Part shown: positions 1-49,421 of the stretch, one piece after another | Position numbering within the stretch: the stretch's first letter is position 1 | How the letters are laid out: each line of letters begins with the position of its first letter | Source: Pirellulales bacterium | GTDB taxonomy: Bacteria > Planctomycetota > Planctomycetia > Pirellulales > JAICIG01 | Assembly: GCA_035252155.1 (NCBI GenBank) | Contig: DATFDL010000224.1 | Coordinates: 2,984-66,983, forward strand | Length of the DNA stretch: 64,000 nucleotides | Reading direction: 5' to 3' | The notes under the pieces: model-generated | What the model was told of the DNA's origin: nothing | What the model saw: only the letters and a program-made list of their open reading frames with translations | Databases searched by the model: none | Made by a program: the position numbers and the translations under genes

Positions 1-269
1 GCCACGCGAAACACTTCGTCGGTCTCGGCCGCGCCCGCCCCGCCGGTAACGACCAACTCCTTGGGCGAGAATTGCTGCAAGTGCCTCAGCACTGCCCGGA
101 GCGTGTCGGGCTGCGTGACGCCGGTGGTGTCGTCCTTCGAGGCCCAGGTGTCGTTGGGTTTGACAGCTACCCGCTTGCCCCGCGCGATTTTTTCGAGATC
201 CAGGTGAGCGAGCGCCTGTTCGATGGCGCGCTCGATGTCGGCATGCTGGGTGATTGCGACCTTAGCCAT
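1..269 (-). CDS. DUF362 domain-containing protein, N-terminal part (rest lies outside the window)
   Basis: Absent from the ORF track because it runs off the left edge. Reverse-strand ATG at 267-269. Translation MAKVAITQHADIERAIEQALAHLDLEKIARGKRVAVKPNDTWASKDDTTGV... resembles DUF362 N-termini. Confidence 0.55.
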   Translation of the reverse strand, partial: MAKVAITQHADIERAIEQALAHLDLEKIARGKRVAVKPNDTWASKDDTTGVTQPDTLRAVLRHLQQFSPKELVVTGGAGAAETDEVFRV

Positions 270-375
270 ATGGTTCGACTCCGGGCGTATGTTTAATCGA
301 CAACCGCCCGGAGCAAGTCGCGCGCCTTTGGCGTTCAGTTGAGACGGATGGCGCCGGCGCATTACAATCGTTCCC

Positions 376-558
376 ATGCACGATGGTTCTGTCCCAGGTT
401 CTCGGCAAGCAACCGCTCCCCAGTTCTCGCTGGCAACTTTGCTCATTCTGGTGACCTTGGCGGCGATGGTCGCCGCCGCGATCAGCGAGCTGCCCGAATG
501 GATCGGAGCGCCGCTGCTGGCCTTGATCGCGACGACGGCCGGCGTGGGACGCCCATGA
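376..558 (+). CDS. small hypothetical membrane protein
   Basis: 60-aa ORF with one hydrophobic helix (FSLATLLILVTLAAMVAAAI). No family recognised. Confidence 0.25.
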   Translation: MHDGSVPGSRQATAPQFSLATLLILVTLAAMVAAAISELPEWIGAPLLALIATTAGVGRP

Positions 559-712
559 CGGCAGCGCTGTCCCGCCGAGCGGCAAGCTCGTGCAAGCACC
601 GAGCAACCTGACTGCGGGCGATCGTGTGCCGGCCATTCCTTAAAAAAACGCACGGTTGCTCGACGAGACTGCCAAAAGTACCCACAGATTCAAAAGCAAA
701 AGGGCCCGGGTG

Positions 713-2344
713 CTACGGCTTGACCACCGTCAGCCATAGATCGCTGGTGCGGGCGCCGAGAGAAAGCGGGGTTTCGGCGAGATGGCGGCGGCTCGTTGGC
801 TCGGTGGCCGTGCCGACAATCTGAATCGGCCCGGAAAAGACAGCCGAGCCGGTGAAGGTCAGTTTCACCGTCTTGGCGGTGTCGCCCTGGGCCAGCGATT
901 TAACGGGCGAGCACGTCACACCGTCTGGCAAGCCAACAACCGCGACTTCGATCTCGCCCGAAAAATTTTGCCGACGGTCGATCGTCACGGGCAGCTCCAG
1001 CGTTTTGCCGAGCCCAACCGCGTAGGCATGTTGCGCGACGCTGAGCGAAAAGTCGGGTCCGAGCGGTTCCAACGAGAGGCGATAAAAATAACGCCCGCCG
1101 CTGTGCTCATAGAGGTCGGACAGCTCCAGCGTGTAGTTGCCGTCGGCGGGCGCCGTGAAATTGAGTTCGGCGTCGATGTTTTTTCCCGCATCGTCGGAGG
1201 TGGCCAATACTTTGCCGGAACCATCGACGAGACGCAGCACCGAATCGAGCGGATAACCCAGCGCGCGGCTATCGACCTTGAATCGCCAGGTTGTTCCTTT
1301 GGCCAGATGCACGCGAAACGCGTCTCGATCGCCGTCTTCGGCGATACGGCCGCTGACGCTGGCTGGCAGCTCGATGGCTTGCGGATGCGCCAGGTCGTTC
1401 GGTTCCGTTTCGCACAGCGCCGGCGTGTCGACCACCGGCAGCGAGATCGCTCCGGCCCATTGCGGTAAAAACAGATCAACGGCGGTTTGATCGGCCGACG
1501 GCGCTAGAGTGAGCCGCTTGTCGGTATCTGAAATATTCCAGCCGAACGCTTCGATCGTGCTTGGCGCGCGAGAAGCGGCCAGCGGCAGCGCGGCGTCCAG
1601 AAAGCCGCCGGTGGTCACGGTCAGGCGATAAACGAACGTTTCACCGCCGGCCAGCGAGATCGAAGCGTCGGGCGTGGCGGGAAACGCGAAGATCCGCACC
1701 AGATACAGGCCGTCGGCCGGCGCGGCGAAGGTCACCAGCGGATCGAGGCCGCGCTCGTCGTCGCTCTGGGCCAGCACGCTTCCTCGCGGCGAAACGATTT
1801 GCAGCACCGCGTCCATCGGCGAGCCGAGCGTCTCGTGCGCGGCGACGGCGGCCACCAGCATTTGACCCTTGACGAGCGGCACGGCGAAGGTATCGACGTC
1901 GCCGCGTTTTTCCAAGCGGCCGTTGACGGTGCGGTTCGAACTAGCGAGCGACTGCGGTTTGGCCGGGCTGTCGTTGGGCTCTTCTTCGTTAGCTTCGCTC
2001 AGCGTGCCGACGATAAACGGCAGCGGCGCGGCCGCGCCTTCGGCGTTGTAAATGCGCAGCCAATAGACGCCGGGCGGCGCGTCGGCCGCGACCGTGACGG
2101 CAAACTTACCTTGCTCCTCGGCGGCGGCAATCTGAATTCCGGGCCGATCGACCCAAACTTGCGCGGGCCAGCCGCCGGGATTGCCTCCCACGGTCACTTG
2201 CACCGCCGCTCCGCGAGCGGCTCCGGCGGGGAATACGTATTTTATGTCTGGCGCGGCGGCCCACGTGACCGAGTTCAACAGCCAAAGTAAGCCGATCGCA
2301 GGCAGCTTCTGCCCCAGCCACCGTGAAGTAGCAACCAGGCTCAC
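713..2344 (-). CDS. secreted protein with two pre-peptidase C-terminal (PPC) domains
   Basis: Two EPND...GR(L/I)...D(V/R)D.F motifs typical of PPC domains. The track ORF extends to 2545, but a GTG at 2342-2344 overlaps the upstream TGA (GTGA), and the residues before it look like out-of-frame text. Confidence 0.7.
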   Translation of the reverse strand: MSLVATSRWLGQKLPAIGLLWLLNSVTWAAAPDIKYVFPAGAARGAAVQVTVGGNPGGWPAQVWVDRPGIQIAAAEEQGKFAVTVAADAPPGVYWLRIYNAEGAAAPLPFIVGTLSEANEEEPNDSPAKPQSLASSNRTVNGRLEKRGDVDTFAVPLVKGQMLVAAVAAHETLGSPMDAVLQIVSPRGSVLAQSDDERGLDPLVTFAAPADGLYLVRIFAFPATPDASISLAGGETFVYRLTVTTGGFLDAALPLAASRAPSTIEAFGWNISDTDKRLTLAPSADQTAVDLFLPQWAGAISLPVVDTPALCETEPNDLAHPQAIELPASVSGRIAEDGDRDAFRVHLAKGTTWRFKVDSRALGYPLDSVLRLVDGSGKVLATSDDAGKNIDAELNFTAPADGNYTLELSDLYEHSGGRYFYRLSLEPLGPDFSLSVAQHAYAVGLGKTLELPVTIDRRQNFSGEIEVAVVGLPDGVTCSPVKSLAQGDTAKTVKLTFTGSAVFSGPIQIVGTATEPTSRRHLAETPLSLGARTSDLWLTVVKP

Positions 2345-3684
2345 CCCATCAACTCCGCGATCGGCGTGGGGTCGCTCACCAAGTGCGTCGGGCGGCCTTG
2401 CGGCGTGTAATAAATCTTGCCCGGCTCGATGCCGAGTTTGAGATAGACGGTCGACACGAAATTTTCGGGCGAAAGCACGCGCTCGACGGCCGAATGGCCG
2501 TTGCGGTCGGTGGCGCCCACCACCACGCCGCCCGGTGTGCCGCAACCGGCAAACAGAATCGACATGGCGTTCGACCAGTGATCGCGGCCGGGTTTCGACT
2601 GCCCGGATAACGTCGAAATTTTCGGGGTGCGCCCGAATTCGCCCAGCGCCACGACGAGCGTGGTTTCGAGCAGCCCGCGGTGTTCCAGATCTTCGATCAA
2701 CGCGGCGATCGAGTTTTCGAACGGCGGCATGCGTTTGCGGAAGCCACCAAAGATGTCGCTGTGATGGTCCCAGCCGCCGTCGTAAAGCGTGACGAATGGC
2801 ACGCCCGCCTCGACCAAACGCCGCGCCAGCAGCGCCCGTTGGCCAAAGCCGTTGCGGCCATAGGCCGCGCGTACGTCGCCGGGTTCTTTCTGAATTTCGA
2901 AGGCCCGCTGAGCCTCAGGGCTGGTCACCAGGTTGTAGCCCTGCCGGTAGTATTCGTCGACCGCGGTCACGGGGTCACCGGCGGCTTTGTCGGCCATGCG
3001 CCGCAGCCGGTCGACTTGCGATCGCAATTCACGGCGTTTGAGAAAGCGGTCGTCGGCCAGCCCCTGCGGCAGGTTCACGTCGCGGACGCGAAAGTTCGGG
3101 TTTTCGGGATTATCGGAGACGACGAACGGCGCGTACTTGGCCCCCAGAAAATTCGGCCCGCCGGAGCGCGACATGCTGGGCATCGAGAAATAAGCCGGCA
3201 AACCGTTGGGCGCGCCCCGCTCGTAAGCCGCCACCGAACCCAGGCTGGGATGAAAGCTGACGAACGCGCCGCATCCCACCGGAATGCGCGGCGGGGCGCC
3301 GGTCATCATGTAATGGTTGCCCGCCCCGTGGTTGCCCTGATCGTGCCTCACCGACCGCACCACCGCAAACTTGTCGGCGATTGAAGCCAACCGCGGCAGA
3401 CACTCCGCGAACTGCACGCCGGGTATCTTGGTGTCGATGGCGTCCAGCTCGCCGCGGATTTCGACCGGAGCTTCGGGCTTGGGATCGAAGCTTTCGAAGT
3501 GCGACGGGCCGCCGTCCATCCAGATCAAAATGCAGGCGGTCGGCCGCCGGGCCGCCGCGCTTGCTTCCGCCGCCTGGCTTTGCAGCCGCAGCAAGTCGGC
3601 CAGGCCGCCCAGCCCCATCGCTGCCAGGCCAAAGTGCAGAGCGTCGCGGCGCGTGATCCCTTCGCAATTGCGGTACAAGCTCAT
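2341..3684 (-). CDS. DUF1501 domain-containing protein (sulfatase-like, Tat signal)
   Basis: N-terminal RRDALHFGLAAMGLGG twin-arginine signal. DGGWDHH and GEFGRTP motifs characteristic of DUF1501. Confidence 0.9.
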   Translation of the reverse strand: MSLYRNCEGITRRDALHFGLAAMGLGGLADLLRLQSQAAEASAAARRPTACILIWMDGGPSHFESFDPKPEAPVEIRGELDAIDTKIPGVQFAECLPRLASIADKFAVVRSVRHDQGNHGAGNHYMMTGAPPRIPVGCGAFVSFHPSLGSVAAYERGAPNGLPAYFSMPSMSRSGGPNFLGAKYAPFVVSDNPENPNFRVRDVNLPQGLADDRFLKRRELRSQVDRLRRMADKAAGDPVTAVDEYYRQGYNLVTSPEAQRAFEIQKEPGDVRAAYGRNGFGQRALLARRLVEAGVPFVTLYDGGWDHHSDIFGGFRKRMPPFENSIAALIEDLEHRGLLETTLVVALGEFGRTPKISTLSGQSKPGRDHWSNAMSILFAGCGTPGGVVVGATDRNGHSAVERVLSPENFVSTVYLKLGIEPGKIYYTPQGRPTHLVSDPTPIAELMG

Positions 3685-3686
3685 CG

Positions 3687-5885
3687 TCAGTCCTTAAACA
3701 AGAACTCAGGGGTGTTCAACAACGCCCACAGCAAGTCTTCGGTCGCCTGCCGACGGTTGGCCGCCGAGGCGAACCACTCGCCGCCGACCTGCCGCTCTTC
3801 AGCGTCCGGCCACCGAGAATATACCAAAAGATACAGCTCTTCCACGATTTTATCGGCCGGCTGGTCGCTGGCGGCCAGCCGGGCCGCTCGTCCGTCGTCG
3901 CTGGTCACTTTGCGGTGTACGTTCGGCGCATTCATCAAGTGCAAGGTTTGCACCATCGTGGTTTCGGGCGTGCGCTCGCAGGGTGGATCCTGATTTGGAT
4001 CGGGCCGCCCAAAGGCGTCGAGAAACAGCGACTCCACCCGGTGCGACCAGATTTGCGTGGCCCGCGACCCGCCCGGCAACGCCGAAAACGTCTCGGGCAC
4101 TTCGGTAATGTCGCTAACGGCGTCGAGCAGCACCTCGGCCCGCAACCGCTGCCGATAGTGGCGAGAGTAGCTGCGCGTGTCGGCCACGTTGCGGTCGTTG
4201 GCCAGCGACGACAGACCGTAGACGTGCGAAGTCATGATTGTCCGCAAGAGGCGCTTCATGTCGAAGCCCATCTCACGGAAATGTTTGGTCAGCGCCGAGA
4301 GCAGCGCTTCGTTCGAGGCGGGGTTGGTCACGCGCAGGTCGTCGACCGGATCGACCAGCCCGCGGCCCATCAGCTCGGCCCACACGCGATTGACGGCCAC
4401 CTTGGCGAAATACGGATTGTCGGGCGAAAGCATCCAGTCGGCCAGCGCCTCGCGCAGGTCTTCTTCACCTTCGGTCGTGCGGGCCGAACCGAACAGCGGC
4501 TTGGGCGGCACCGGCTGTCCGCTGGTCGGATGCGTCACCGTGCCCTTGGCCGCGGCAAACACCATCTCTTCGCCACCAGAGATGGGCGGCGACAGACCGG
4601 TGCCCTTACGCCCGACGTGCGAAAACCAGGCGGCGAAGCCGTAGAAATCGTCCTGTCCCCAGGCCTCGAACGGATGATGATGGCACTTGGCGCACTCCAG
4701 CCGAATGCCGAGAAACAGTTGGCTGACCGCCGTGGCGATTTCGGGCGGCTCGCGACGGTCGCGAAACAGCGTGACGGCGCCGTTGCGCCAGGTGCTGCCG
4801 CGGGCCGTCACCAGCTCGCGCACAAATTGGTCGTAAGGCAGGTTGCGGCGGAAGGCGTCGCGCAGCCAGGCGTCGAGGCTGAACGTCGCTTTGACGCCCA
4901 CGCGATAGGCGTTGGGCCGCAACAGATCGGCCCACTTGTTGGCCCAGAAATCGGCGTACTCCTCGCGGGCCAACAGCGCGTCGATCAGCCGCTCGCGCTT
5001 CGAGGGCGATTGATCGGCCAGAAACGCGCGGGTTTCGTCGGGCGTGGGCAGCCGGCCGATCGCGTCGAGATACGCCCGTCGCAGAAACGCGCTGTCGGTC
5101 GCCGGTTCGCTGGGGGTGACGCCCAGCTCTTGCAGCTTCGCCCAAACATGTTCGTCGATGAAATTCTTGCGCGGCAGGGCGGCATAAACGGCCGCCTCGA
5201 CCGGCTCGGCCAGCGGGATGAGCGTGTTCCAAGTGGCGATGTGGCTCATATAGCGGGCCATGATCGCGGTTTCGCCCGGCAGGATGCCGGCCTTCACCAA
5301 CCCGTGTCGATCGACGGCGACGATCGCGCTTTCGTTTGATTGAAACGTGCTGCCGCGCGTCACGTCGCGCGTCGAGCCATCGGAGTAGTGGGCGGTGACG
5401 GTGAGTTGCTCGCTTTGGCCAGCGGCCAGCTTATGCTCGTCGGGCGACAGCGAGATGCGCACCAACTCGGGGTCGCTGGGCAAGCGTCGTGGCATGCCTT
5501 GTTCGATCCAGCGCCGCACCAGTTCGTATTCTTCGCTTCCTTTTTGCAATCGTTCGCCGCCGCCGTGCGGCAATTCGGCCGACGCTTTTCGCAGCAGCAG
5601 GCTGCGCTCGGCGGCGGCCGGAAACAGCCGCCGTCCCCGAGCGTCTTTTACGATCCGCGCGTAGTCAAACTCGGCGTCGAAGCCCAGCAGCGAGAGTTGA
5701 AACCCGTTTTGCCCGCGTGCCTTGCCATGGCAAGCGCCCTGATTGCAGCCCGCCGCCGTCAGTACCGGCAGCACATCCAACTCAAACACCACCCGCGTCG
5801 CCGTCGGTTCGGCAGCCAGCGCCGGCCGTGCGGCCAGTAAGACGACCAAAGCGCACCACATTAGCAGCAGCGTACGGTGGACCAC
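3687..5885 (-). CDS. DUF1549/DUF1553 domain-containing protein with Ig-like (Big_2) domain
   Basis: Signal peptide, CNQGACHG, FWANKWADLLR, CAKCHHHPFE and NRVWAELMGRGLVDPVDD motifs. Forms an operon with the DUF1501 gene 3 nt downstream. Confidence 0.9.
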   Translation of the reverse strand: MVHRTLLLMWCALVVLLAARPALAAEPTATRVVFELDVLPVLTAAGCNQGACHGKARGQNGFQLSLLGFDAEFDYARIVKDARGRRLFPAAAERSLLLRKASAELPHGGGERLQKGSEEYELVRRWIEQGMPRRLPSDPELVRISLSPDEHKLAAGQSEQLTVTAHYSDGSTRDVTRGSTFQSNESAIVAVDRHGLVKAGILPGETAIMARYMSHIATWNTLIPLAEPVEAAVYAALPRKNFIDEHVWAKLQELGVTPSEPATDSAFLRRAYLDAIGRLPTPDETRAFLADQSPSKRERLIDALLAREEYADFWANKWADLLRPNAYRVGVKATFSLDAWLRDAFRRNLPYDQFVRELVTARGSTWRNGAVTLFRDRREPPEIATAVSQLFLGIRLECAKCHHHPFEAWGQDDFYGFAAWFSHVGRKGTGLSPPISGGEEMVFAAAKGTVTHPTSGQPVPPKPLFGSARTTEGEEDLREALADWMLSPDNPYFAKVAVNRVWAELMGRGLVDPVDDLRVTNPASNEALLSALTKHFREMGFDMKRLLRTIMTSHVYGLSSLANDRNVADTRSYSRHYRQRLRAEVLLDAVSDITEVPETFSALPGGSRATQIWSHRVESLFLDAFGRPDPNQDPPCERTPETTMVQTLHLMNAPNVHRKVTSDDGRAARLAASDQPADKIVEELYLLVYSRWPDAEERQVGGEWFASAANRRQATEDLLWALLNTPEFLFKD

Positions 5886-6005
5886 GGCGGGCTTTTTGGG
5901 TAGGCGGGAAACACGATCGGCGGGACGTCTAGCATAACCTATTGCCGCCGTGCGGGCAACGAAAGCGGCGGTGTCTTAGTAGTGTGTTGCCCCTGCGCAG
6001 ACTGA

Positions 6006-6069
6006 CACTAACCCGAAGCGTAAGCGAAGCAGAATCACCGTATTTCCTCGCTTACGCTTCGGGTTAGTG
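6006..6069. repeat. perfect 22-bp inverted repeat (long hairpin) in a divergent intergenic region
   Basis: CACTAACCCGAAGCGTAAGCGA (6006-6027) is the exact reverse complement of 6048-6069. Outer imperfect arms GTGTGTTGC / GCAACACAC extend the palindrome to about 5975-6095. Confidence 0.85.
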
Positions 6070-6176
6070 TGGAAAGCAACACACAATTAAGACACTGCCA
6101 CGAAAGCCATTTAGTTTACCGTTCATGCCGCTATGGTTACAATGTCGTGAAATTCGCCCCTGAAGAGGTTGCCACC

Positions 6177-7457
6177 ATGCGCTGCGCAGAATTCAAGAGC
6201 CCTCGACGACTGGCGCGAGTCGCCGGCTTAGGGGCCGTTGCCCTATTCTTGGTTGGAATGGTGACGGCTGGCGCCGCGGAACCTGCGACGGACGTAACTG
6301 ACCTCTCGTGGGTCGACCAGCGCATCGCAGACTGGGAGCTGACTGACGAAGAGCGCCGCTTTGATGAGATCGGCTGGGCCGGCGGCCTGGACGAGGCCGC
6401 GCGCCTGGCCCGCCAGTGGCAACGGCCATTGTTCGTATTCACTTACTCCGGATCAGCGACCGAGGCCAATGCCATCGCCTTGCGGCGTTGTTGAGGCGGG
6501 GCCAACAGCATGAGAGCGGGTCCGCTCTCCAACGAAACCGTCATCTCGTTGCTCAATAGCAGTTTCGTGCCGGTCTACGTCGACGGGGTCTACCTCTCGC
6601 ACAACGAGGCTGCCTCCGCCGACGAAAAAGCGGCCTATCGGCGGCTGTTTGAAGAATTCTCGCGATTCAATCGAGAGGCCGAAGCCAAGGGCGGGGCGCA
6701 GACGTCGATCGGCAGTGTGCATGCCTACATCCTCACCGCCGACGGCCGGGCCTTCGATTCGTTGCACGTCGCCGAAGCCAAAGCGAGTCGCGTGATCGAG
6801 ATGCTGCGCCGCGCGATCGAGCAACTGAAGCCCGCCGCCGGTGGACCGGCGACCAAGCCGGCGGCCCAGTCGTCGGCGCCGCAAGCGCCGCCTGGCTCGT
6901 TGGTTCTGCACCTGACTGCCCGCTATCTGCATGTGAAGCCCGGCGAGAAAGAGGCGCCCGAGGAATTTGTGCCCGTCCACACGAACGCCTTGGGGACCGA
7001 CCGCGCCGGCAACTGGTCGGACCTGCCCTCGGAGAACTGGATTGTGCTTGAGCCTGCCGAGGGGCAAAAGTTCGTGCCGGCCGGCGACCTGACCGTTGGA
7101 CGGTCGTGGGAAATCGACCGCGAGCTGGCGACCAAGATTTACTTGCGGTTCTACCCGGACACCGAGTCCAACGACTTTGCCGACAACCGGATCGACCGCC
7201 AGTCGCTCCGGGCGAAAGTCGTTTCCGTGGCCGACGGCCTGGCTCGGGTGCAGTTGGAGGGCGAGTTGAAGATGAAGCACCCCTTTTATCCGCACCGCGA
7301 AGACGACCACTTCGTCGACGCGACAGTGGCGGGTTATCTCGATTATGAAATCGGTCCGCGTCGGATTCGTTCGCTCCGGCTCGTGACCGACGAAGCCACC
7401 TACGGCAGTCCGCGGCAAACGCAGCATATTGGCGTCGCACTGCGGTCGATGCCGTGA
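6177..7457 (+). CDS. secreted thioredoxin-fold protein with an in-frame TGA at 6492-6494 (candidate selenoprotein, otherwise a nonsense pseudogene)
   Basis: Track ORFs 6069-6494 and 6510-7457 are in the same frame, separated only by TGA plus 5 sense codons. The signal peptide starts at the ATG at 6177. The pattern LFVFTYSG...RRC-TGA-GG...ETVISLLNSSFVPVYVDG spans the stop and resembles Thioredoxin_7/DUF255-type domains. Confidence 0.6.
6512..6529 (+). promoter_or_regulatory. SECIS-like stem-loop downstream of the in-frame TGA
   Basis: GAGAGCG-GGTC-CGCTCTC forms a perfect 7-bp stem with a GGUC loop starting 17 nt after the TGA. A possible lower stem pairs CGTTG (6486-6490) with CAACG (6530-6534). 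Confidence 0.5.
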
Positions 7458-16669: not shown

Positions 16670-16838
16670 ACGACTGCCCCCGGCGGGCCAGCGAGACTTT
16701 CCCATGATGTCCATACGGCCCAGCATCACCAACGAACGCAAAGGGACGGGCTTATTTGCCGGTCAACCGGCGAATTCGCTCCCCGCGCATCCGTTGCGCT
16801 TGTGACGCTCGGCCATCAAGCAAGCAAGGCTCTTCAAA

Positions 16839-16870
16839 GGCCCGGTGTCACGAGACACCGGGCCTTTTTT
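16839..16870 (+). terminator. rho-independent terminator
   Basis: GGCCCGGTGTC-ACGA-GACACCGGGCC forms a perfect 11-bp stem followed by TTTTTT. It sits 21 nt before the first tRNA. Confidence 0.85.
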
Positions 16871-16891: not shown

Positions 16892-16964
16892 GGCTCGTTC
16901 GTCTAGCGGCTCAGGATGCCGGCCCTTCAAGCCGGAGGCCGGGGTTCGACTCCCCGACGAGCTA
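16892..16964 (+). tRNA. tRNA-Glu(TTC)-like
   Basis: Acceptor GGCTCGT/ACGAGCT (G1-U72), Glu-type D arm GTCTAGCGGCTCAGGA, anticodon stem CCGGC/GCCGG with loop CCTTCAA (C rather than U at 33), T arm CGGGG-TTCGACT-CCCCG. Confidence 0.7.
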
Positions 16965-16973
16965 CTTGAAAAG

Positions 16974-17046
16974 CAGAACGTAGGAGAGCGGCCACTCCGC
17001 CTGGTCGGGGGCCAGGAGACCGCCGGTTCGAGTCCGGCCGTTCTGA
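16974..17046 (+). tRNA. tRNA-Pro(GGG)-like
   Basis: C1-G72 and A73, D stem GGAG/CTCC, anticodon stem CCTGG/CCAGG with loop TCGGGGG (C at 33), T arm GCCGG-TTCGAGT-CCGGC. Confidence 0.7.
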
Positions 17047-17065
17047 CAGACTGAACGAAGAATCA

Positions 17066-17137
17066 CGGGATGTAGGGTAGCGGTGGCCCGCGTGCCTTGG
17101 GAGCACGAGCAAGTGGGTTCAACTCCCACCGTCCCGA
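17066..17137 (+). tRNA. tRNA-Pro(TGG)
   Basis: Canonical cloverleaf: CGGGATG/CGTCCCG, anticodon stem CGTGC/GCACG with loop CTTGGGA, T arm GTGGG-TTCAACT-CCCAC, A73. Confidence 0.9.
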
Positions 17138-17148
17138 CTCGTAATCAT

Positions 17149-17237
17149 AGTCCGGTGTTGTAACGGAAGCATGGCGATCTGATACGTCGCCGGCGACCAC
17201 GCTGCGCGCGGTGCCCGTTCGACTCCACCCCGGACTA
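17149..17237 (+). tRNA. tRNA-Ile(GAT)-like carrying a 21-nt hairpin insert
   Basis: Acceptor AGTCCGG/CCGGACT, anticodon arm GCGAT-CTGATAC-GTCGC, A73. The T stem GGCG..G/CCACC closes only if 17196-17216 (ACCACGCTGCGCGCGGTGCCC) is looped out. Confidence 0.5.
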
Positions 17238-17309
17238 CTTCGCCAAAACAAGGAGAACCACAATGCGGCAGCGACAGCGGCTCAAACGCATACGCCAGAC
17301 CGACAACAT

Positions 17310-17380
17310 GGGGTCGTGGCGTAACGGTAGCGCATCCGCCTTTTAAGCGGAAGGGTGAGGGTTCGACTCCGGCTGGGTGC
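17310..17380 (+). tRNA. tRNA-Lys(TTT)-like, probably defective
   Basis: The 5' two-thirds fold well (GGGGTCG, D stem GCG/CGC, anticodon arm TCCGC-CTTTTAA-GCGGA) and a GGTTCGACTCC T-loop is present. I could not find a 3' strand that closes the T stem or acceptor stem. Confidence 0.35.
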
Positions 17381-17388
17381 TTATAGAG

Positions 17389-17484
17389 CGGCGTGTGGGA
17401 AAGCCTGGAATTCCGCGTGCTTCGGGAGCACGAAACCGACCAACGCTGCGCGTCGGTGCCCGGGTTCAAATCCGGCCACGCCGA
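17389..17484 (+). tRNA. tRNA-Pro(CGG)-like carrying a 23-25 nt hairpin insert
   Basis: Acceptor CGGCGTG/CACGCCG (C1-G72, A73), D stem GGAA/TTCC, anticodon arm CGTGC-TTCGGGA-GCACG (same stem as the TGG isoacceptor). Insert at 17439-17461 lies just 5' of GGTTCAAATCC. Confidence 0.5.
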
Positions 17485-17490
17485 CTCGAT

Positions 17491-17565
17491 TGCGGTGGGA
17501 CCCGTGCTGGTACGGGTAGGCGGCTGTTAACCGCCCTGACGCAGGTTCGATTCCTGGCGCCGCAG
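17491..17565 (+). tRNA. tRNA-Asn(GTT)
   Basis: U1-A72 and G73, D stem ACCC/GGGT, anticodon arm GGCGG-CTGTTAA-CCGCC, T arm GCAGG-TTCGATT-CCTGG. Confidence 0.85.
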
Positions 17566-17579
17566 CTCACGATGAAAAC

Positions 17580-17664
17580 GGAACGGCAAGCCAACGGGCG
17601 ATGGCAGCCGCCTCGAAAGCGGTCGAGCAGCAATGCCTTGGGAGTTCGACTCTCCCTCCTTCCG
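17580..17664 (+). tRNA. tRNA-Ser(CGA), class II
   Basis: Acceptor GGAACGG/TCCTTCC (one C-C mismatch), anticodon arm GCCGC-CTCGAAA-GCGGT, long variable arm, T arm GGGAG-TTCGACT-CTCCC, G73. Confidence 0.8.
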
Positions 17665-17671
17665 CCTTCAC

Positions 17672-17763
17672 GTGCCCTTGGCCGAGCGGCAAAGGCTCCA
17701 GCCTTCCAAGCTGGCGCGACCAACGCTGCGCGTCGGTGCCCGGTTCGACTCTCGCAGGGCACT
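17672..17763 (+). tRNA. tRNA-Gly(TCC)-like carrying a 23-nt hairpin insert
   Basis: Acceptor GTGCCCT/AGGGCAC, U73, anticodon arm CCAGC-CTTCCAA-GCTGG. The T stem GCG..GG/CTCGC closes only if 17719-17741 is looped out. Confidence 0.5.
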
Positions 17764-17773
17764 CTTTCAATGA

Positions 17774-17844
17774 TCGGGGATCGGCTAACGGTAGGCTCCC
17801 TGGCTTTGAACCAGGAGATGGAGGTTCAAGTCCTTCTCCCCGAA
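17774..17844 (+). tRNA. tRNA-Gln(TTG)
   Basis: Acceptor TCGGGGA/TCCCCGA (U1-A72), anticodon arm CCTGG-CTTTGAA-CCAGG, T arm GGAGG-TTCAAGT-CCTTC. Confidence 0.8.
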
Positions 17845-17880
17845 CTTCGGTCGCGATGGCCGTGTCCCAAGAATACATGA

Positions 17881-17974
17881 TCCGGGGCAGTTGCTGCTGG
17901 TAGTAACGCCTGGCTCCGGGCACCGTGCGCAGCATGGTCGCAGGAAGCCATTGGTTCGATTCCAACCCCCGGAA
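17881..17974 (+). tRNA. tRNA-Arg(CCG)-like carrying the hairpin insert in inverted orientation
   Basis: Acceptor TCCGGGG/CCCCGGA, D stem GTTG/TAAC, T arm ATTGG-TTCGATT-CCAAC. The anticodon stem 5' strand CCTGG and loop CTCCGGG are followed by a ~19-nt hairpin (the 17918-17938 element) before the 3' strand GCAGG. Confidence 0.45.
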
Positions 17975-17986
17975 CTTTAGACATAC

Positions 17987-18071
17987 GGAGGTCATCCGGC
18001 CGGATGAGGAGCCTGTCTTGAAAACAGGTGGCGGCGCAAGTCGCTTGTGAGTTCGAGTCTCACGGCCTCCG
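17987..18071 (+). tRNA. tRNA-Ser(TGA), class II
   Basis: Acceptor GGAGGTC/GGCCTCC, anticodon arm CCTGT-CTTGAAA-ACAGG, long variable arm, T arm GTGAG-TTCGAGT-CTCAC, G73. Confidence 0.8.
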
Positions 18072-18085
18072 CCTCTGGTGAAACA

Positions 18086-18158
18086 CGTCCCGTGGCCTAG
18101 TAGCGAAGGCAGCGCCTCCACACGGCGAAGATCGACAGTGCGAGTCTGTCCGGGACTA
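18086..18158 (+). tRNA. tRNA-Val(CAC)-like
   Basis: D stem GCC/GGC, anticodon stem CGCC/GGCG with loop TCCACAC (C at 33), T arm GACAG-TGCGAGT-CTGTC (G at 55), C1-U72 mismatch, A73. Confidence 0.55.
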
Positions 18159-18159
18159 C

Positions 18160-18234
18160 GTCCTCGTGGAGCAGCCAGGAGTGCTCGCCTGCTTGTCAGG
18201 CAGGAGGTCGCGGGTTCAAGTCCCGCCGGGGACG
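18160..18234 (+). tRNA. tRNA-Asp(GTC)
   Basis: Canonical: GTCCTCG/CGGGGAC, D stem GAGC/GCTC, anticodon arm CCTGC-TTGTCAG-GCAGG, T arm GCGGG-TTCAAGT-CCCGC, G73. Confidence 0.9.
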
Positions 18235-18248
18235 CTTTCATAAAGCAC

Positions 18249-18323
18249 GGCGCGGTACGCAAACAGGCAAAGCGGCCAAGCTCAAACCTTGGTGACCTGT
18301 CGGTTCGATTCCGACCTGCGCCA
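18249..18323 (+). tRNA. tRNA with anticodon CAA (Leu) on a short-variable-loop (class I) body
   Basis: Acceptor GGCGCGG/CTGCGCC, D stem CGC/GCG, anticodon arm CCAAG-CTCAAAC-CTTGG, ~6-nt variable loop, T arm GTCGG-TTCGATT-CCGAC, A73. Confidence 0.6.
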
Positions 18324-18459
18324 CTCGCACAACGAGCAACATGCGTCGGTTGAGCATTCGGATACAAAATCAGCGTCTATTGAGTGAACAGTGCTGGCCG
18401 GCGTTAACCGTGCGACGGCAATACGATCGAGTCCTGAACCCCGAACCTTGAACCCTCCC

Positions 18460-19050
18460 ATGGCCAAGATGCTCAACAGGCCGGCGCTGGTGCTCAACCG
18501 CAACTGGCAGCCGGTGAACGTCGCCACCGTCGCTCGCGCGCTGGTCATGCTCTTCAATGAGGCGGCCCGCGTCGTCGATCCGGCTGACTACCAGCTCTAC
18601 ACCTGGGCTGACTGGTCAGGGCTGGCTCCGCGCGACGGCGAGCCGTTCATCCAGGCGGTGAGCATGCGGTTGCGCGTACCGGAGGTGATCGTGCTGGCGG
18701 GCTACGATCGGCTGCCCGAAGCGGCCGTGGCGTTCAGCCGGCGGAACATCTTCAAGCGCGACCACTACACTTGCCAGTATTGCGGCGTACAGCCGGGCGT
18801 CGAGGAGCTGTCGATCGACCACGTAATTCCGCGGTCGCAAGGCGGCATCTCGACCTGGGACAACTGCGTGCTGGCGTGCGTGGAGTGCAACAAGCGCAAG
18901 GCCAACCGCACGCCGGCTGAGGCGGGCATGAAGCTGCGCAAGCAACCTTGCCGCCCGCAGTGGAAGCCGCTCTATGCTGCGCACAGCGTGCGTGTCGAGA
19001 GCTGGTCGAAGTTTGTCAGCGAGGCTTATTGGAGCGTCGAACTCCGCTGA
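18460..19050 (+). CDS. HNH endonuclease
   Basis: DHYTCQYCGVQPGVEELSIDHVIPRSQGGISTWDNCVLACVECNKRKANRTP is an HNH motif with two CxxC pairs. The likely start is the ATG at 18460 (MAKMLNRPALVLNRNWQPVN). Confidence 0.9.
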   Translation: MAKMLNRPALVLNRNWQPVNVATVARALVMLFNEAARVVDPADYQLYTWADWSGLAPRDGEPFIQAVSMRLRVPEVIVLAGYDRLPEAAVAFSRRNIFKRDHYTCQYCGVQPGVEELSIDHVIPRSQGGISTWDNCVLACVECNKRKANRTPAEAGMKLRKQPCRPQWKPLYAAHSVRVESWSKFVSEAYWSVELR

Positions 19051-19066
19051 GCCGCAGTTGAAGCAA

Positions 19067-19096
19067 GCCGATCCAAGCGGGGCAGCTTGGATCGGC
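19067..19096 (+). terminator. 12-bp perfect hairpin after the HNH gene
   Basis: GCCGATCCAAGC-GGGGCA-GCTTGGATCGGC. No U-run follows, so it could be a processing or terminator element. Confidence 0.4.
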
Positions 19097-19101
19097 CTTA
19101 C

Positions 19102-19171
19102 AGGATCGTGCTCCTGGGAGAGCCAGCGGTCTCCAAAGCCGCTTTACGGGGTTCGACTCCTCGCGATCCTG
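19102..19171 (+). tRNA. tRNA-Trp(CCA)-like
   Basis: Acceptor AGGATCG/CGATCCT, anticodon arm GCGGT-CTCCAAA-GCCGC, T arm CGGGG-TTCGACT-CCTCG, G73. The D arm is unusually small (CTC-CTGG-GAG). Confidence 0.65.
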
Positions 19172-19174
19172 CTT

Positions 19175-19245
19175 GTCCTGCGAGTGTGATGGAAGCACGG
19201 CAATCTTCGGAACTGTAAGACGGGGTCCGATTCCTCGGCGGGGTG
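19175..19245 (+). tRNA. tRNA-Arg(TCG)-like
   Basis: Acceptor GTCCTGC/GCGGGGT (three G-U pairs), D stem GTGT/GCAC, anticodon arm GCAAT-CTTCGGA-ACTGT (one mismatch), T arm CGGGG-TCCGATT-CCTCG (C at 55). Confidence 0.55.
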
Positions 19246-19264
19246 CTGCTGGTCATAACAACTT

Positions 19265-19337
19265 GTCCTCGGAGTGTGCCGGATTCGCACTCGAGCCCGC
19301 GAAGCTCGTAGACCAGGTTCGATTCCTGGCGAGGACG
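19265..19337 (+). tRNA. tRNA-Arg(GCG)-like
   Basis: Acceptor GTCCTCG/CGAGGAC, D stem GTGT/GCAC, anticodon stem CGAGC/GCTCG with loop CCGCGAA (C at 33), T arm CCAGG-TTCGATT-CCTGG. Confidence 0.7.
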
Positions 19338-19349
19338 CTTGAACAACCC

Positions 19350-19422
19350 GACGCTGGAGCCAGACGGCACGGCAACCGCCTGCAGAGCGGTTTCAAGCGG
19401 GTTCGACTCCCGCCGGCGTTTC
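19350..19422 (+). tRNA. tRNA-Cys(GCA)
   Basis: Acceptor GACGCTG/CGGCGTT, D stem GCC/GGC, anticodon arm ACCGC-CTGCAGA-GCGGT, T arm GCGGG-TTCGACT-CCCGC, U73. Confidence 0.85.
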
Positions 19423-36860: not shown

Positions 36861-37262
36861 ATGGTTCATTCCGGCCGCGAGCGAGATGTGCCCCACCGCC
36901 GCCGCGGTCGAGGTAAGGGTAATCCAGTGCCAAAACTCGCTGAAAGCAACCTGCCAACCTTGATTCAGCGCATCACGTCGCGGATCTTGAAGCGGTTTCA
37001 CCCGGACAAGGTGATCCTATTTGGTTCTCAGGCGCGCGGAAACACAACCGCGGACAGCGACTTGGATTTGCTGGTGGTGATGGATTTTGAGGGGTCGAAG
37101 CTCGACAAGATGGTCGAGGTACGCGAGGTGCTGAGGGGGATCAGGATCCCGACGGACATTCTCATCACGACGCCCGACGACTTCGCCTGGCGCAAGGACG
37201 TGGTGGGCACCATTGAATGGCCGGCTTTCCATGAAGGCCAAGTCCTTTATGCCCGCGCCTAG
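36861..37262 (+). CDS. nucleotidyltransferase (MNT-type antitoxin)
   Basis: KVILFGSQARGNTTADSDLDLLVV is the NTase GS...D.D motif. The true start may be the GTG at 36927. Confidence 0.75.
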   Translation: MVHSGRERDVPHRRRGRGKGNPVPKLAESNLPTLIQRITSRILKRFHPDKVILFGSQARGNTTADSDLDLLVVMDFEGSKLDKMVEVREVLRGIRIPTDILITTPDDFAWRKDVVGTIEWPAFHEGQVLYARA

Positions 37263-37673
37263 CAATCCGCAGTTAGCCGTTCTGCGTCAATGGGTCGAGA
37301 AGGCCGAACACGACCTGACGGCCGCCAGACAGATTCAAAAGCTCGGCAAGGCCGCGCCGACGGATACGATTTGTTTTCACGCGCAGCAATGCGTCGAGAA
37401 GTATCTTAAGGCCGCTCTGGTCAACCTAGGGATTCCCTTCGCAAAGACCCACGACATCGAAGTGCTGATGAAGCTGATTCCGCCTAAGCACCGGCCAGCC
37501 ATGACGCCGACGGAGCAGAATTATTCACCAGTTATGCGGTCGTGGTTCGATATCCGCAAGCCGGACTGGCGATTCCTCTGCGCGAATCGCGCAGGGCGGT
37601 GGCCATCGCGCGGCGCATTCGCCGCGAAGTGCGCCGCTCGTTGCCCAGGTCGGCGGTACGGCGCACCAAGTGA
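37249..37673 (+). pseudogene. HEPN domain protein (toxin partner of MNT) with a frameshift near 37500-37515
   Basis: The N-terminal half is in the 37249 frame (LRQWVEKAEHDLTAARQI...HAQQCVEKYLKA). The C-terminal half AELFTSYAVVVRYPQAGLAIPLRESRRAVAIARRIRREV, with an HEPN-like YAV..RYP motif, is in another frame ending at TGA 37671-37673. The 277-aa track ORF is readthrough into repeats. Confidence 0.6.
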
Positions 37674-37884
37674 GCACGATTCTTCCGATCAGTCGGCCCC
37701 TAGTTCTCGAGCCTCCAGCGCCCAGTCCCCAATCCCAAGCCTCCGTCCCCAGTCCCTCCGCTCCACGCCCCACGCCTCCCGCCCCACGGCTACCAATCCA
37801 GCCTGGGCCAGTTGCTGCACAGCGCGGTTTACCTCGGCGGCTTTTGGCTTCCCCGACCTCCGAATCGGGACCGCGTCGCCTCGT

Positions 37885-37936
37885 CATTTTGCATTTTACT
37901 TTTGCATTTTGCATTTCGGTCTTTGCAAATTTGCAC
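37885..37936. repeat. AT-rich cluster of five TTTGCA hexamers
   Basis: CATTTTGCATTTTACTTTTGCATTTTGCATTTCGGTCTTTGCAAATTTGCAC. Confidence 0.8.
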
Positions 37937-38201
37937 TCACCGTGCGCGGCGAAGCGCGGAAAAACCACTTACGGCGATCTACGAGAGAGGCCAGAGGTCG
38001 GAGGTCGGAGACCGGGGCAGGAGAAAAAAGCCAACGGGCTAACTAAAGGGTGCGCTGCCACCCCCTGACCCCCGACCTCTGAATCCCCACCCATTTCCTC
38101 GGCCCTCACCCAGCCTCTCCCGGAGGGGGCTTTGCACCGCAACCTCGCCAAAAACGGAGGTTGTTGGGCAGCCGCCAAGGTTGTTGTGCAGTGACCTCGG
38201 C

Positions 38202-40863: not shown

Positions 40864-42129
40864 TCAACCATCTGACGAAAATGTTTGCGGAGCTTCAGAC
40901 TCCTTCTCGTGAAAGAATTCGGGCTCGATGCCCAATTCATACATTTCCTGTATCAAGACACAGATGTTGTGGCATAGCAGCTTGCACAGAACCTCGTTCA
41001 CCATCGCCACGTCGGTCTTGCTCCGAATGTGGTCACGGAACTTGGTCTTAATCATCATGAAGGTGCTCTCAACATTGCTCCGCTGATGGTAATGCTTAAG
41101 AAACTCCTCTCGCTTAAACTTAAAGTAATGATACATCTTTGCCCATAGACCACCGCCTTTTCCCGTGTGAATCGCCTTGAAGCAGATGTAGGGCACTGCT
41201 CCATAAGCGGCGACCGTGTTCGTGTTCTTAATGCTGGCATAGCCCTTGTCTGCGCAAACTTCCTCCATCGTAAAGTTCTCGGCGGTTGTTTTAACCAGAT
41301 CGGGCAACAACTTGGTGTCGCTGGCATCCTTGTCCCGGATCTCGACCGCCGTTACAACATTTGTTTTGACGCCGCACATGATATGGACCTTCACCCACTC
41401 ATGCTGGCGGCGCTCGACCCCGTTCCGGTGATCGAGCCACTTAATGAACCTTGAAGTCGTGAAGCCAGTGCTGTCGGCAGCGAACACCGTCTCGACTTCC
41501 TTAAGTGGCAGGCTCGCCATGACGATCAAATCCCGCAGAACTGGCGTGATTTCAGGGTTTTGCAGATAGTTAAAGATCGAGTTGAAGTGGGGCACTCGGC
41601 TGATATAGCCTTTCTCTTTGGCTTCCCGCAGGTCGGTCATAAAGCGCCGACCACTGACCGTGCTGTAAATCTTAAATGTTGCAGCGAAGATGGCATCACC
41701 GAGCGGCAAGAACGGTCGCCCGCCCTTGGGCTGCTCCCGCTTGGGTTCATCAATCGTCCCGCATAGATCCGCCAGAAGTTGTTGGAACTTGGCTTTCTCG
41801 TTGGTTTGGGCAGCATTATATGCCCTCCAAACTTGCGGATAGGTCTTGCGTTCCTTGATCTCGACCGAGTTCGTCACGATCTCGCTCCCATCCGGGCTTT
41901 TTTCCCGCTTGATGAGGAACTCGACGGCGAAGATGTGCTTGCACTTACCGCCCCGAGTCTCGTGGTCTGGACAGGTGCAATGTGGGTTGCTGGGGTCGGG
42001 GCAGACTGTATACCTGCCCTTGCCCGATTGCGACGGGACGAGGTAAACGCCGCCCTTCTGCTCAATCCTGCACATCGCAGCGATGCGGAGTCCCCGTTGT
42101 TCCCGAACGTCCAGATTGGCTGTTTCCAT
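40864..42129 (-). CDS. DDE transposase (IS5/IS4-like) with N-terminal SWIM zinc finger
   Basis: CTCPDHETRGGKCKHIFA (SWIM). FAADSTGF, CADKGY and YHQRSNVESTFMMIKTKF match DDE_Tnp_1-type motifs. I could not identify terminal inverted repeats for a discrete IS. Confidence 0.8.
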   Translation of the reverse strand: METANLDVREQRGLRIAAMCRIEQKGGVYLVPSQSGKGRYTVCPDPSNPHCTCPDHETRGGKCKHIFAVEFLIKREKSPDGSEIVTNSVEIKERKTYPQVWRAYNAAQTNEKAKFQQLLADLCGTIDEPKREQPKGGRPFLPLGDAIFAATFKIYSTVSGRRFMTDLREAKEKGYISRVPHFNSIFNYLQNPEITPVLRDLIVMASLPLKEVETVFAADSTGFTTSRFIKWLDHRNGVERRQHEWVKVHIMCGVKTNVVTAVEIRDKDASDTKLLPDLVKTTAENFTMEEVCADKGYASIKNTNTVAAYGAVPYICFKAIHTGKGGGLWAKMYHYFKFKREEFLKHYHQRSNVESTFMMIKTKFRDHIRSKTDVAMVNEVLCKLLCHNICVLIQEMYELGIEPEFFHEKESEAPQTFSSDG

Positions 42130-42404: not shown

Positions 42405-42520
42405 TGGCGCAAACCTTTGGCTATCAATGGCTTGCGACAGGCACAAAAATTCCGGTGCGGCTCGTTGACTTTGTCGAGCCAGTCGTCTAAGTTAACCCAT
42501 AGTTGATTGCTCAAAAGACG

Positions 42521-42593
42521 TTGCGGGGGAGGGAATTGAACCCTCATTCGACGCTTTAAAGGCGTTCGTCCTACCCAATTAGACGACCCCGCA
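42521..42593 (-). tRNA. tRNA with anticodon TTA (reads UAA; ochre-suppressor type)
   Basis: Reverse strand: TGCGGGG TC GTC-TAATTGGGTAG-GAC G AACGC-CTTTAAA-GCGTC GAAT GAGGG-TTCAATT-CCCTC CCCCGCA A. It has a perfect 7-bp acceptor (U1-A72), a perfect T arm, U33, A36-A37-A38 and A73. Confidence 0.75.
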
Positions 42594-49022: not shown

Positions 49023-49339
49023 ACCCTAACTAAACGCCGGCAATGGGGAAATATTGCAGCAGCGGAAAAGAATTCGAGGTTGTCCGGCATCGAGACCTCC
49101 GGCACGGCGAGGTGGCCGGTGAGAATTCGGTGGATCGTGATCTCGACCAGCTTTTGGGCGACGACCGCCGCTTTCTGGGAGCGGGTCTTGAGAGACCGCT
49201 TGAATTCTTACGCGTGAAAGCGGAAGCGGACGACGTAGATGCCGCCCTTGGTGCCGCGGTTGGCCATGTTGCAGGAGCAGGCACCGGCGCCTAATTATAG
49301 GGATCGGCGGAGGCAAGCAATTGACGTAAGTCCTTGCAG

Positions 49340-49421
<82 letters not shown>

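Follow-up and report, generated by a model that had tools for sequence, protein, structure and literature searches.

An eroded HNH-associated tRNA array in a Pirellulales genome and the non-canonical tRNAs of its family

The array and its closest described relatives

L-arrays are supernumerary, horizontally spread tRNA arrays, often linked to an HNH endonuclease gene. They occur sporadically in several phyla, Planctomycetes included (Santamaría-Gómez et al. 2021, PMC8421152). The Anabaena L-array promotes survival and is switched on by translational stress, and 23 of its 26 tRNAs are charged in vivo (PMC8421152). Here we describe a tRNA array at positions 16892-19422 of a 64-kb stretch of Pirellulales DNA, which we call the window. 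In our reading, it is a partly eroded copy of an HNH-associated L-array. The deviations in its tRNAs would be inherited family traits under purifying selection and not the product of local decay. We give this reading a probability of about three in four. It rests on the homology to L-arrays, on synteny, on the conservation and covariation of the deviant features, and on the nature of the lesions.

We called tRNA genes with ARAGORN (default and lowered threshold) and with Infernal against the Rfam model RF00005 (gathering threshold of 29 bits). ARAGORN reports 16 tRNA genes, all on the + strand. The lowered threshold adds a 17th, Arg(UCG) at 19175-19246. Infernal confirmed most of these genes and placed the anticodon loops in the same registers. 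Together with two remnants, the 16 or 17 genes occupy 2.53 kb, which is more than six per kb. The spacers are mostly 5-20 nt long, and the anticodons follow a non-repeating pattern. A tRNA array unit has been defined as a minimum of 20 tRNA genes, at two or more per kb (Tran et al. 2016, PMC4758250). The window array has this density but not this count, whereas its syntenic relatives, with 20-40 genes, have both. So, the window copy is a degraded derivative and not a full array unit.

An HNH endonuclease gene (18460-19050, + strand, 196 amino acids) is embedded in the array. More than 5000 homologues share 70-95% identity with the protein, and those with a named source come from Pirellulales or Planctomycetota. 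A collection with one representative genome per species contains 553 HNH loci. The planctomycete arrays are thus widespread, in contrast to the sporadic L-arrays of the literature. We fetched 80 loci (L001-L080). A tRNA gene lies less than 400 nt from the HNH gene in 67 of them, and 52 show at least ten same-strand tRNA genes in the same order. In 13 of the 80, the HNH gene has no nearby tRNA. The first part of the family order is Phe-Glu-Pro-Pro-Ile-Lys-Ile(UAU)-Lys-Thr-Gly-Pro-Asn-Ser-Gly-Gln-Gln-Ser-Val-Leu-Leu-Asp-Leu(CAA). It continues with Tyr-Glu-Leu-Met-Leu-Val-Thr-Ala-Ala-Ser-Arg-His-[HNH]-Trp-Thr-Arg-Arg-Arg-Cys. The arrays of Planctomycetia reach about 40 genes, and the HNH gene is almost always found between His(GUG) and Trp(CCA).

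The link with the Anabaena array is one of homology. The HNH protein of Nostoc PCC 7120 plasmid delta is 36% identical over residues 2-166, N-terminal domain included (tblastn, E = 1e-22), and its gene is followed by the 24 tRNA genes of the trn array. Like the planctomycete arrays, this trn operon (HNH all8564) has same-strand genes, very short spacers and a non-periodic order. Both also present four Leu isoacceptors with short variable regions. The differences are several. The HNH gene is inside the planctomycete arrays, between His and Trp, and upstream in Anabaena, and the gene order is not the same. Cytosine at tRNA position 33 (C33) is found in 0 of 24 Anabaena genes against 16% in the planctomycete arrays. 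Likewise, the T-loops with G55, the G8 and the minimal D arm of Trp are not seen in Anabaena.

Among HNH domains, that of the array-embedded protein most resembles the IscB/Cas9 type, and the conservation of the protein (70-95% across planctomycete families) is unusually high for a homing-type enzyme. We also considered other HNH homologues as possible arrays. Those of Acaryochloris pREB6, of plasmids from Tsukamurella and Methylobacterium, and of Gordonia phage GodonK lie without an adjacent array. The same is true of a homologue in a 595-kb uncultured phage, with one lone tRNA call. It means that the HNH family is broader than the arrays.

A tblastx comparison of the flanks gave only noise, and the window flanks are not syntenic even with L001, whose HNH protein is 91% identical. 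Some genomes carry more than one locus. L021 and L035 are on one contig (CAWDRV010000004.1), about 48 kb apart, and each is a full array with an HNH gene of its own. Two HNH loci are also present in the assemblies DATKSN01 (L006, L023), JAXGPP01 (L014, L047) and CAZURK01 (L013, L060). In these three assemblies, one locus of each pair is reduced in tRNAs (eight in L023, two in L013).

The tRNA clusters of phages (cluster C1 mycobacteriophages, T5) are a further point of comparison. They are likewise accessory, near-complete sets, with anticodon loops unlike those of the host. Moreover, HNH homologues adjoin tRNA arrays on the viral contigs L087-L089 and L091. The L087 contig (IMGVR_UViG_3300007072_000340), 94 kb long and classed as viral, holds a full array of 36 genes in the same order, with ten C33 tRNAs. 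In contrast, the window array lies among ordinary chromosomal genes, and we saw no phage genes adjoining it.

Position 33 in the window and in the family

Few nucleotides in biology vary as little as U33, the anchor of the anticodon U-turn. The first-pass annotation of the window had placed C33 in four array genes, and ARAGORN and Infernal agree with it on all four. tRNA-Glu(UUC) (16892-16965, + strand, 55.7 bits) has C33 at 16925, in the stem-loop CCGGC-CCTTCAA-GCCGG. tRNA-Pro(GGG) (16974-17047, + strand, 53.2 bits) has it at 17006, in CCTGG-TCGGGGG-CCAGG. tRNA-Val(CAC) (18086-18159, + strand, 44.4 bits) has it at 18118, in GCGCC-TCCACAC-GGCGA. Finally, tRNA-Arg(GCG) (19265-19338, + strand) has it at 19298, in CGAGC-CCGCGAA-GCTCG. 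A cloverleaf with 7/4/5/5-bp stems and a 7-nt anticodon loop fits the four genes, with a D stem of 3 bp in Arg-GCG. The covariance scores of the first three exceed the threshold of 29 bits, and that of Arg-GCG (20.3 bits) is below it. The two non-array tRNAs of the window scored 59-60 bits.

These registers had been set by hand, and alternative folds with U33 had been named beforehand as the result that would overturn them. If they were wrong, standard folds would restore both U33 and the TΨC sequence. Neither ARAGORN nor Infernal offers a register with U33. Shifted loops that would give one break the 5-bp stems. The two programs show the same registers with perfect 5-bp stems, and the same loops recur in orthologues from dozens of genomes. 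An artefact of this kind has, in our opinion, almost no chance of being the explanation.

C33 is present in 4 of the 16 window array tRNAs and in none of 60 control tRNAs (Fisher p = 0.0014). The controls were the Anabaena L-array, two low-GC phage arrays and the non-array tRNAs in the flanks. We then have the 80 fetched loci and the window as a family sample of 1424 array tRNAs. Position 33 is U in 83.8% of them, C in 15.7% and a purine in 0.5% (7 of 1424). Every array of at least 12 genes contains some C33, in a range of 4-29%.

The distribution follows the isoacceptor. C33 is found in 37 of 38 Leu-GAG genes and 10 of 11 Pro-GGG genes. It is also frequent in Glu-CUC (29/38), Val-CAC (8/11), Ala-CGC (5/7) and Thr-CGU (20/31). 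Lower values are seen in Glu-UUC (10/41) and Arg-GCG (7/44, on three different stem backgrounds). There is none in Ile, Lys, Trp, Cys, Leu-CAA, Leu-UAG and Arg-UCU, CCU or ACG. The window genes have close counterparts in this family. The Glu gene of L002 is identical to that of the window. L001 shares with the window the C33 of Arg-GCG, the T-loop TGCGAGT on a Val gene and the T-loop TCCGATT on Arg-UCG.

Whether C33 is conserved or variable among relatives had been proposed as the way to separate selection from decay. The answer depends on the isoacceptor. The Leu-GAG loop TCGAG is kept in 33 of 34 aligned genes, with compensatory double changes in 8 of 22 stem pairs. The Pro-GGG loop TCGGGG is kept in 10 of 11 aligned genes, with compensatory double changes in 10 of 23 stem pairs. 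A near-invariant C33 loop among compensatory stem changes is what purifying selection leaves behind in a folded RNA. On the other hand, Glu-UUC and Arg-GCG toggle between U and C. In these two families, the constraint looks like one for a pyrimidine and not for C.

The exclusion pattern gives a second argument. C33 is present in 2.1% of the tRNAs that decode ANN codons, other than Thr, and in 17.5% of the other tRNAs (p = 3e-14, phylogenetically uncorrected). By the third anticodon base, it reaches 4.7% with A36, 30% with C36 and 16% with G36. The E. coli TsaBCDE enzymes are unable to make N6-threonylcarbamoyladenosine at position 37 (t6A37) on a U33C substrate (PMC8887486). The near-exclusion of C33 from the non-Thr ANN decoders fits this role as an anti-determinant for bacterial t6A37. 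It is the pattern expected of tRNAs that still need a modification at position 37, and so are used in translation. In our reading, C33 is tolerated mainly in isoacceptors with G/C-rich anticodons, independent of t6A37 or of N6-isopentenyladenosine (i6A37).

A natural, conserved and functional C33 tRNA is already described. It is the cytoplasmic initiator tRNA-Met of multicellular eukaryotes (PMC8887486). Its C33 is compatible with ribosome function and is an anti-determinant for the t6A enzymes of bacteria and yeast (PMC8887486). The difference is that it is an initiator from another domain of life, and here we have bacterial elongators of several specificities. In structural terms, a protonated C can stand in for the U of the U-turn (PMC4105743). 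RNAalifold lengthens the anticodon stem in C33 families, by U32-G38 in Leu-GAG and by U32-A/G38 and C33-G37 in Pro-GGG. In this model, C33 could shrink the loop to 3-5 nt, unless methylation of G37 prevents it. Our literature searches on C33 in tRNA arrays found nothing relevant.

The alternative put forward in the first-pass annotation was relaxed selection on a redundant island. More precisely, the array would be redundant and silent, and C33, the altered T-loops and the odd arms would be the first steps of pseudogenisation under GC-biased mutation. One part of it stands. Redundancy with core genes is seen directly in L045, where a canonical 84-nt class II Leu(CAA) shares the locus with the short array Leu(CAA). 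In the window, it is suggested by a non-array Leu(UAG) of class II (49339-49421). The erosion of the window copy is also obvious. C33 appears to be commonest where an isoacceptor with U34 could also read the same codons. The other part, the deviations as erosion products, is not supported, because they are common to related arrays, specific to isoacceptors and kept amid compensatory stem changes, with purines near-absent at position 33. This scarcity of purines occurs despite G+C-rich genomes. The fixation of C33 in Leu-GAG and Pro-GGG across families and its near-exclusion from non-Thr ANN decoders argue in the same direction. So does the loop TCCACAC, which the window has on a body of the Val(UAC) type, and which other Val(CAC) genes have on another body. 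In addition, T54, C56, A58 and the G53-C61 pair are 98-100% conserved in the array tRNAs. We regard relaxed selection as an improbable explanation of the deviations.

Nevertheless, several points weigh against the reading of inherited traits under purifying selection. Low covariance scores, some of them below threshold, are found in Arg-GCG (20.3 bits), Arg-UCG (26.9) and Trp (30.4). The C33 of Glu-UUC and Arg-GCG is found on several stem backgrounds and requires seven and six parsimony steps, respectively, on the HNH tree. This tree is poorly resolved and may not follow the history of the arrays. The Thr isoacceptors are ANN decoders and yet have C33 in 34 of 90 genes, an unexplained exception. 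The frequency of C33 rises with the G+C content of the tRNA (rho 0.49), and C33 is absent from the low-GC arrays of Anabaena and phages. Taken with the toggling, this means that mutation pressure on a weakly constrained site explains a part of the pattern. The low scores, the toggling and the G+C trend also speak for relaxed selection. The locus counts are phylogenetically non-independent, and ARAGORN favours canonical T-loops, which may bias the sample. Probably, GC-biased mutation supplies the variants, and selection then tolerates or rejects them.

T-loops, leucine tRNAs and the anticodon repertoire

Two array genes had been reported with T-loops that break the usual TTC sequence, and both are real. 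In tRNA-Arg(UCG) (19175-19246, + strand, 26.9 bits), the loop TCCGATT, with C55, is exactly at 19226-19232. In tRNA-Val(CAC), the loop TGCGAGT, with G55, is at 18139-18145, one base away from the position first given. Neither is private to the window. The Val(CAC) body and its G55 T-loop are common to Val(UAC) of L001 and L006, and the Arg(UCG) loop recurs in L001 and L076. Among Thr(UGU) genes, 31 of 35 have a T-loop with G55. Position 8 is likewise remodelled, since about a third of the array tRNAs have a nucleotide other than U there. G8 is found in Arg and Cys, and in the window it is present in Arg(UCG), Arg(GCG) and the last gene of the array, tRNA-Cys(GCA) (19350-19422, + strand).

The tRNA-Trp(CCA) gene (19102-19172, + strand, 71 nt, 30.4 bits) has an unusually small D arm, as was first noticed. 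Its dimensions were not those described. ARAGORN draws a 4-bp stem and a 6-nt loop instead of 3 bp and 4 nt, with no position 9, so that a single nucleotide joins the acceptor and D stems. This minimal arm is conserved in the family, and its D stem covaries over more than 40 loci.

The tRNA-Leu(CAA) gene (18249-18324, + strand) had been singled out for its A73 and its short variable region, and ARAGORN and Rfam confirm both. Its variable region is about 5-6 nt, and it lacks the long variable arm of class II (more than 10 nt, forming a stem-loop). It has the core of a Leu tRNA, with A73, U8-A14 and the GG of the D loop (GGCGCGG-T-A-CGC-AAACAGGCAAA-GCG ... TTCGATT ... A73). The short form is found in 43 of 44 array Leu(CAA) genes, with variable regions of 5-11 nt. 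It extends to Leu(UAA), Leu(UAG) and Leu(GAG), so that these four isoacceptors measure 73-80 nt in almost every array and 75-78 nt in Anabaena. In the short genes, A73 and U8 are preserved, as are the canonical T-loop and a D stem of 3 bp with a loop of 11 nt. Long arms are retained in Leu(CAG), Ser and Tyr of the arrays. For a bacterial leucyl-tRNA synthetase (LeuRS), A73 and the tertiary core are critical, and deletion of the variable arm mainly lowers affinity (PMC2377443).

The repertoire of the arrays also has a bias. Arg(GCG) is present in 44 loci and Arg(ACG) in six, and Ile(UAU) is present in 21. The Arg(GCG) and Ile(UAU) anticodons need neither the A34-to-I editing by TadA nor the lysidine formation by TilS.

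This repertoire bears on a second alternative, that of adaptive divergence. The arrays would be an alternative set, unlike the housekeeping tRNAs in anticodon loops and cores, that escapes anticodon-loop nucleases or toxins or does without some modification enzymes, and that rescues translation under attack or stress. The preference for anticodons independent of TadA and TilS is in its favour, and so are the block of bacterial t6A formation by C33 (PMC8887486) and the HNH homologues beside arrays on viral contigs. The anticodon-loop changes of phage tRNAs, which are predicted to evade host tRNases (PMC10264068), give a precedent. The Anabaena L-array, with its stress induction and its effect on survival (PMC8421152), would fit as well. 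It is also compatible with the explanation we prefer. Nevertheless, we identified no tRNase or toxin adjoining the arrays. Cleavage by the K. lactis gamma-toxin, the only anticodon nuclease for which we found published data, is unaffected by U33C (PMC2275089), and the U/C toggling within families speaks against a strict requirement for C. We hold adaptive divergence to be a possibility, but an unlikely one. The same doubt applies to a broader form of the idea. In it, the L-arrays of Planctomycetia would be a maintained alternative decoding set, insensitive to toxins directed at the anticodon loop or to the loss of modifications, and so able to rescue translation under attack. Its features would be a U33 relaxed to a pyrimidine and fixed to C in Leu-GAG and Pro-GGG, anticodons free of TadA and TilS, and remodelled U8 and U55. 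We put it forward only tentatively.

Erosion of the window copy and the likely role of the array

The inherited traits described above coexist with local damage of another nature. About 17 of about 40 ancestral genes are left in the window copy, and about 20 have been lost in all. The ancestral first gene, Phe-GAA, is absent by comparison with the order in relatives. A terminator-like hairpin (16836-16867, + strand), with a 14-bp stem and a T run, lies 25 nt upstream of the first gene and marks the 5' boundary of the array.

Two deletions can be recognized. The Lys-like gene at 17310-17380 (+ strand) had been described as lacking the 3' strand of its acceptor stem, and the Rfam hit indeed covers only model positions 6-65. 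The alignment shows a chimeric pseudogene. Lys(UUU) sequence runs from its 5' side up to the T-loop, and its 3' end comes from Gly(GCC). We read this chimera as the footprint of a deletion from T-loop to T-loop, with the loss of Ile(UAU), Lys(CUU) and Thr(CGU). The second deletion is upstream of the HNH gene. This gene follows His(GUG) in 56 loci and Leu(CAA) in the window, which indicates the loss of about 12 genes (Tyr to His).

The other lesions are insertions of a palindromic mini-element. It is 21-27 nt long, with the form CG/GGCACC-stem-GCGCAGC-stem-GGTC/G (slashes at the junctions), and is an imperfect palindrome with a covarying stem. Within tRNA genes, it replaces 5-7 nt of a loop or stem strand, in either orientation. 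The 64-kb window has four copies, all within the array, and none is expected by chance. In tRNA-Ile(GAU) (17149-17238, + strand), the copy at 17195-17215 (- strand) occupies the variable loop and the 5' side of the T stem. The T stem is broken, and Rfam gives no hit. In tRNA-Pro(CGG) (17389-17485, + strand), the copy at 17438-17460 (- strand) lies in the variable region, and the T stem is partly disrupted. In tRNA-Gly(UCC) (17672-17764, + strand), the copy at 17718-17740 (- strand) stands in place of the variable loop and the 5' T-stem strand. Finally, in the tRNA-Gln(CUG) remnant (17881-17973, + strand), the copy at 17919-17939 (+ strand) replaces the TGAAC of the anticodon loop and leaves a weak, selenocysteine (Sec)-like Rfam hit.

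The Gly-UCC gene of L001 is uninserted and otherwise identical to that of the window, and the same site was hit independently in L021 and L035. The mini-element is also present in L004, L006, L021, L024, L035 and others. In the fetched loci, 41 of 41 pattern matches fall in the tRNA-bearing part (7-6863, in coordinates where the HNH gene is near 5000-5600, or 6001-6588 in L087). We discarded two readings of it, as an intron of the tRNA and as a new kind of long variable arm, because of the two orientations and the loss of target sequence. Excision cannot restore the tRNA when 5-7 nt, including anticodon or T-stem strand, are missing.

The mini-element is not specific to the arrays or linked to the HNH gene. 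In a metagenome scan with one exact 23-mer, 89 of 122 copies had no tRNA within 1 kb. The left junction was CG in 105 of 120 metagenome copies. Nesting also occurs, with some copies lying inside other palindromes or inside one another. The notion that the flanks always form one contiguous helix was also rejected, as contiguous runs show no excess over shuffled flank pairs. Measured by duplex energy, the pairing of the flanks does show a moderate excess over shuffled pairs. REP-type (repetitive extragenic palindromic) elements are similar in being short imperfect palindromes with conserved ends, a covarying stem and many dispersed copies in both orientations. In contrast to them, the mini-element inserts within tRNA genes, replaces 5-7 nt and can nest in itself. 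Elements of the REP/RAYT type are extragenic and go with a RAYT gene (Y1 transposase). No transposase was identified with the mini-element, though no search aimed at one was made. Literature searches on palindromic insertions in tRNA genes found nothing relevant.

The decay of this copy has two causes. One is recombination deletions between similar T-loops, one of which left the Lys::Gly chimera. The other is the insertion of the mini-element into tRNA loops, with four genes hit.

Among the remaining array genes, tRNA-Pro(UGG) (17066-17138, + strand, 57.2 bits) has a canonical loop, and tRNA-Gln(UUG) (17774-17845, + strand) has the top score among the array genes (60.3 bits). ARAGORN also gives tRNA-Asn(GUU) (17491-17566, + strand) and the class II tRNA-Ser(CGA) (17580-17666, + strand). 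The class II tRNA-Ser(UGA) (17987-18073, + strand) and tRNA-Asp(GUC) (18160-18235, + strand) are found by both ARAGORN and Rfam. The genes that flank the array are ordinary chromosomal ones. They encode a copper amine oxidase, TPM-domain proteins, and PD40 and GSDH proteins, and no mobility genes were seen adjoining the array.

Elsewhere in the window, a tRNA gene at 42520-42593 (- strand, 59.9 bits) combines a Glu-like body with the anticodon UUA, which would read the stop codon UAA. It lies in a patch of lower GC, beside the gene of a DDE transposase (40864-42129), and may be either a suppressor tRNA or a copy with a mutated anticodon. Near the transposase, the lower-GC region also holds a gene for a HEPN-domain protein (37213-38046, + strand), and such domains are often the RNases of toxin or defence systems.

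In the mechanism we propose, the array tRNAs would be a second, supernumerary set beside the canonical housekeeping genes. The family carries a pyrimidine at position 33 according to isoacceptor, T-loops with G55 or C55 in particular families, and G8 in Arg and Cys. It also carries the minimal D arm of Trp, and Leu tRNAs in which the long variable arm is lost but A73 and the Leu-type D arm remain. In this reading, the deviations are features of design that are tolerated, and the tRNAs most likely continue to be transcribed, processed, charged and employed in decoding. The array would be transcribed as a polycistron and then processed. The CCA is not encoded, and the tRNAs would be charged as a reserve pool. 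Expression, aminoacylation and an inducible backup pool are all inferred from the Anabaena trn operon. A dedicated, non-standard use had also been suggested for the array, and nothing found in the present analysis shows a dedicated use or one outside translation. The likeliest role is that of a supernumerary backup tRNA set.

The arrays of one phylum hold C33 in about one sixth of the genes of a large, natural family of bacterial elongators, over hundreds of arrays. If the tRNAs are active, they would be a natural experiment on the need for U33 and on its interplay with anticodon strength and with the modifications of position 37 (t6A, i6A). They would likewise be a natural experiment on how far LeuRS tolerates the loss of the variable arm. 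Finally, the poorly understood L-arrays are extended to a phylum where they are apparently common, and their function would be testable in culturable Pirellulales.

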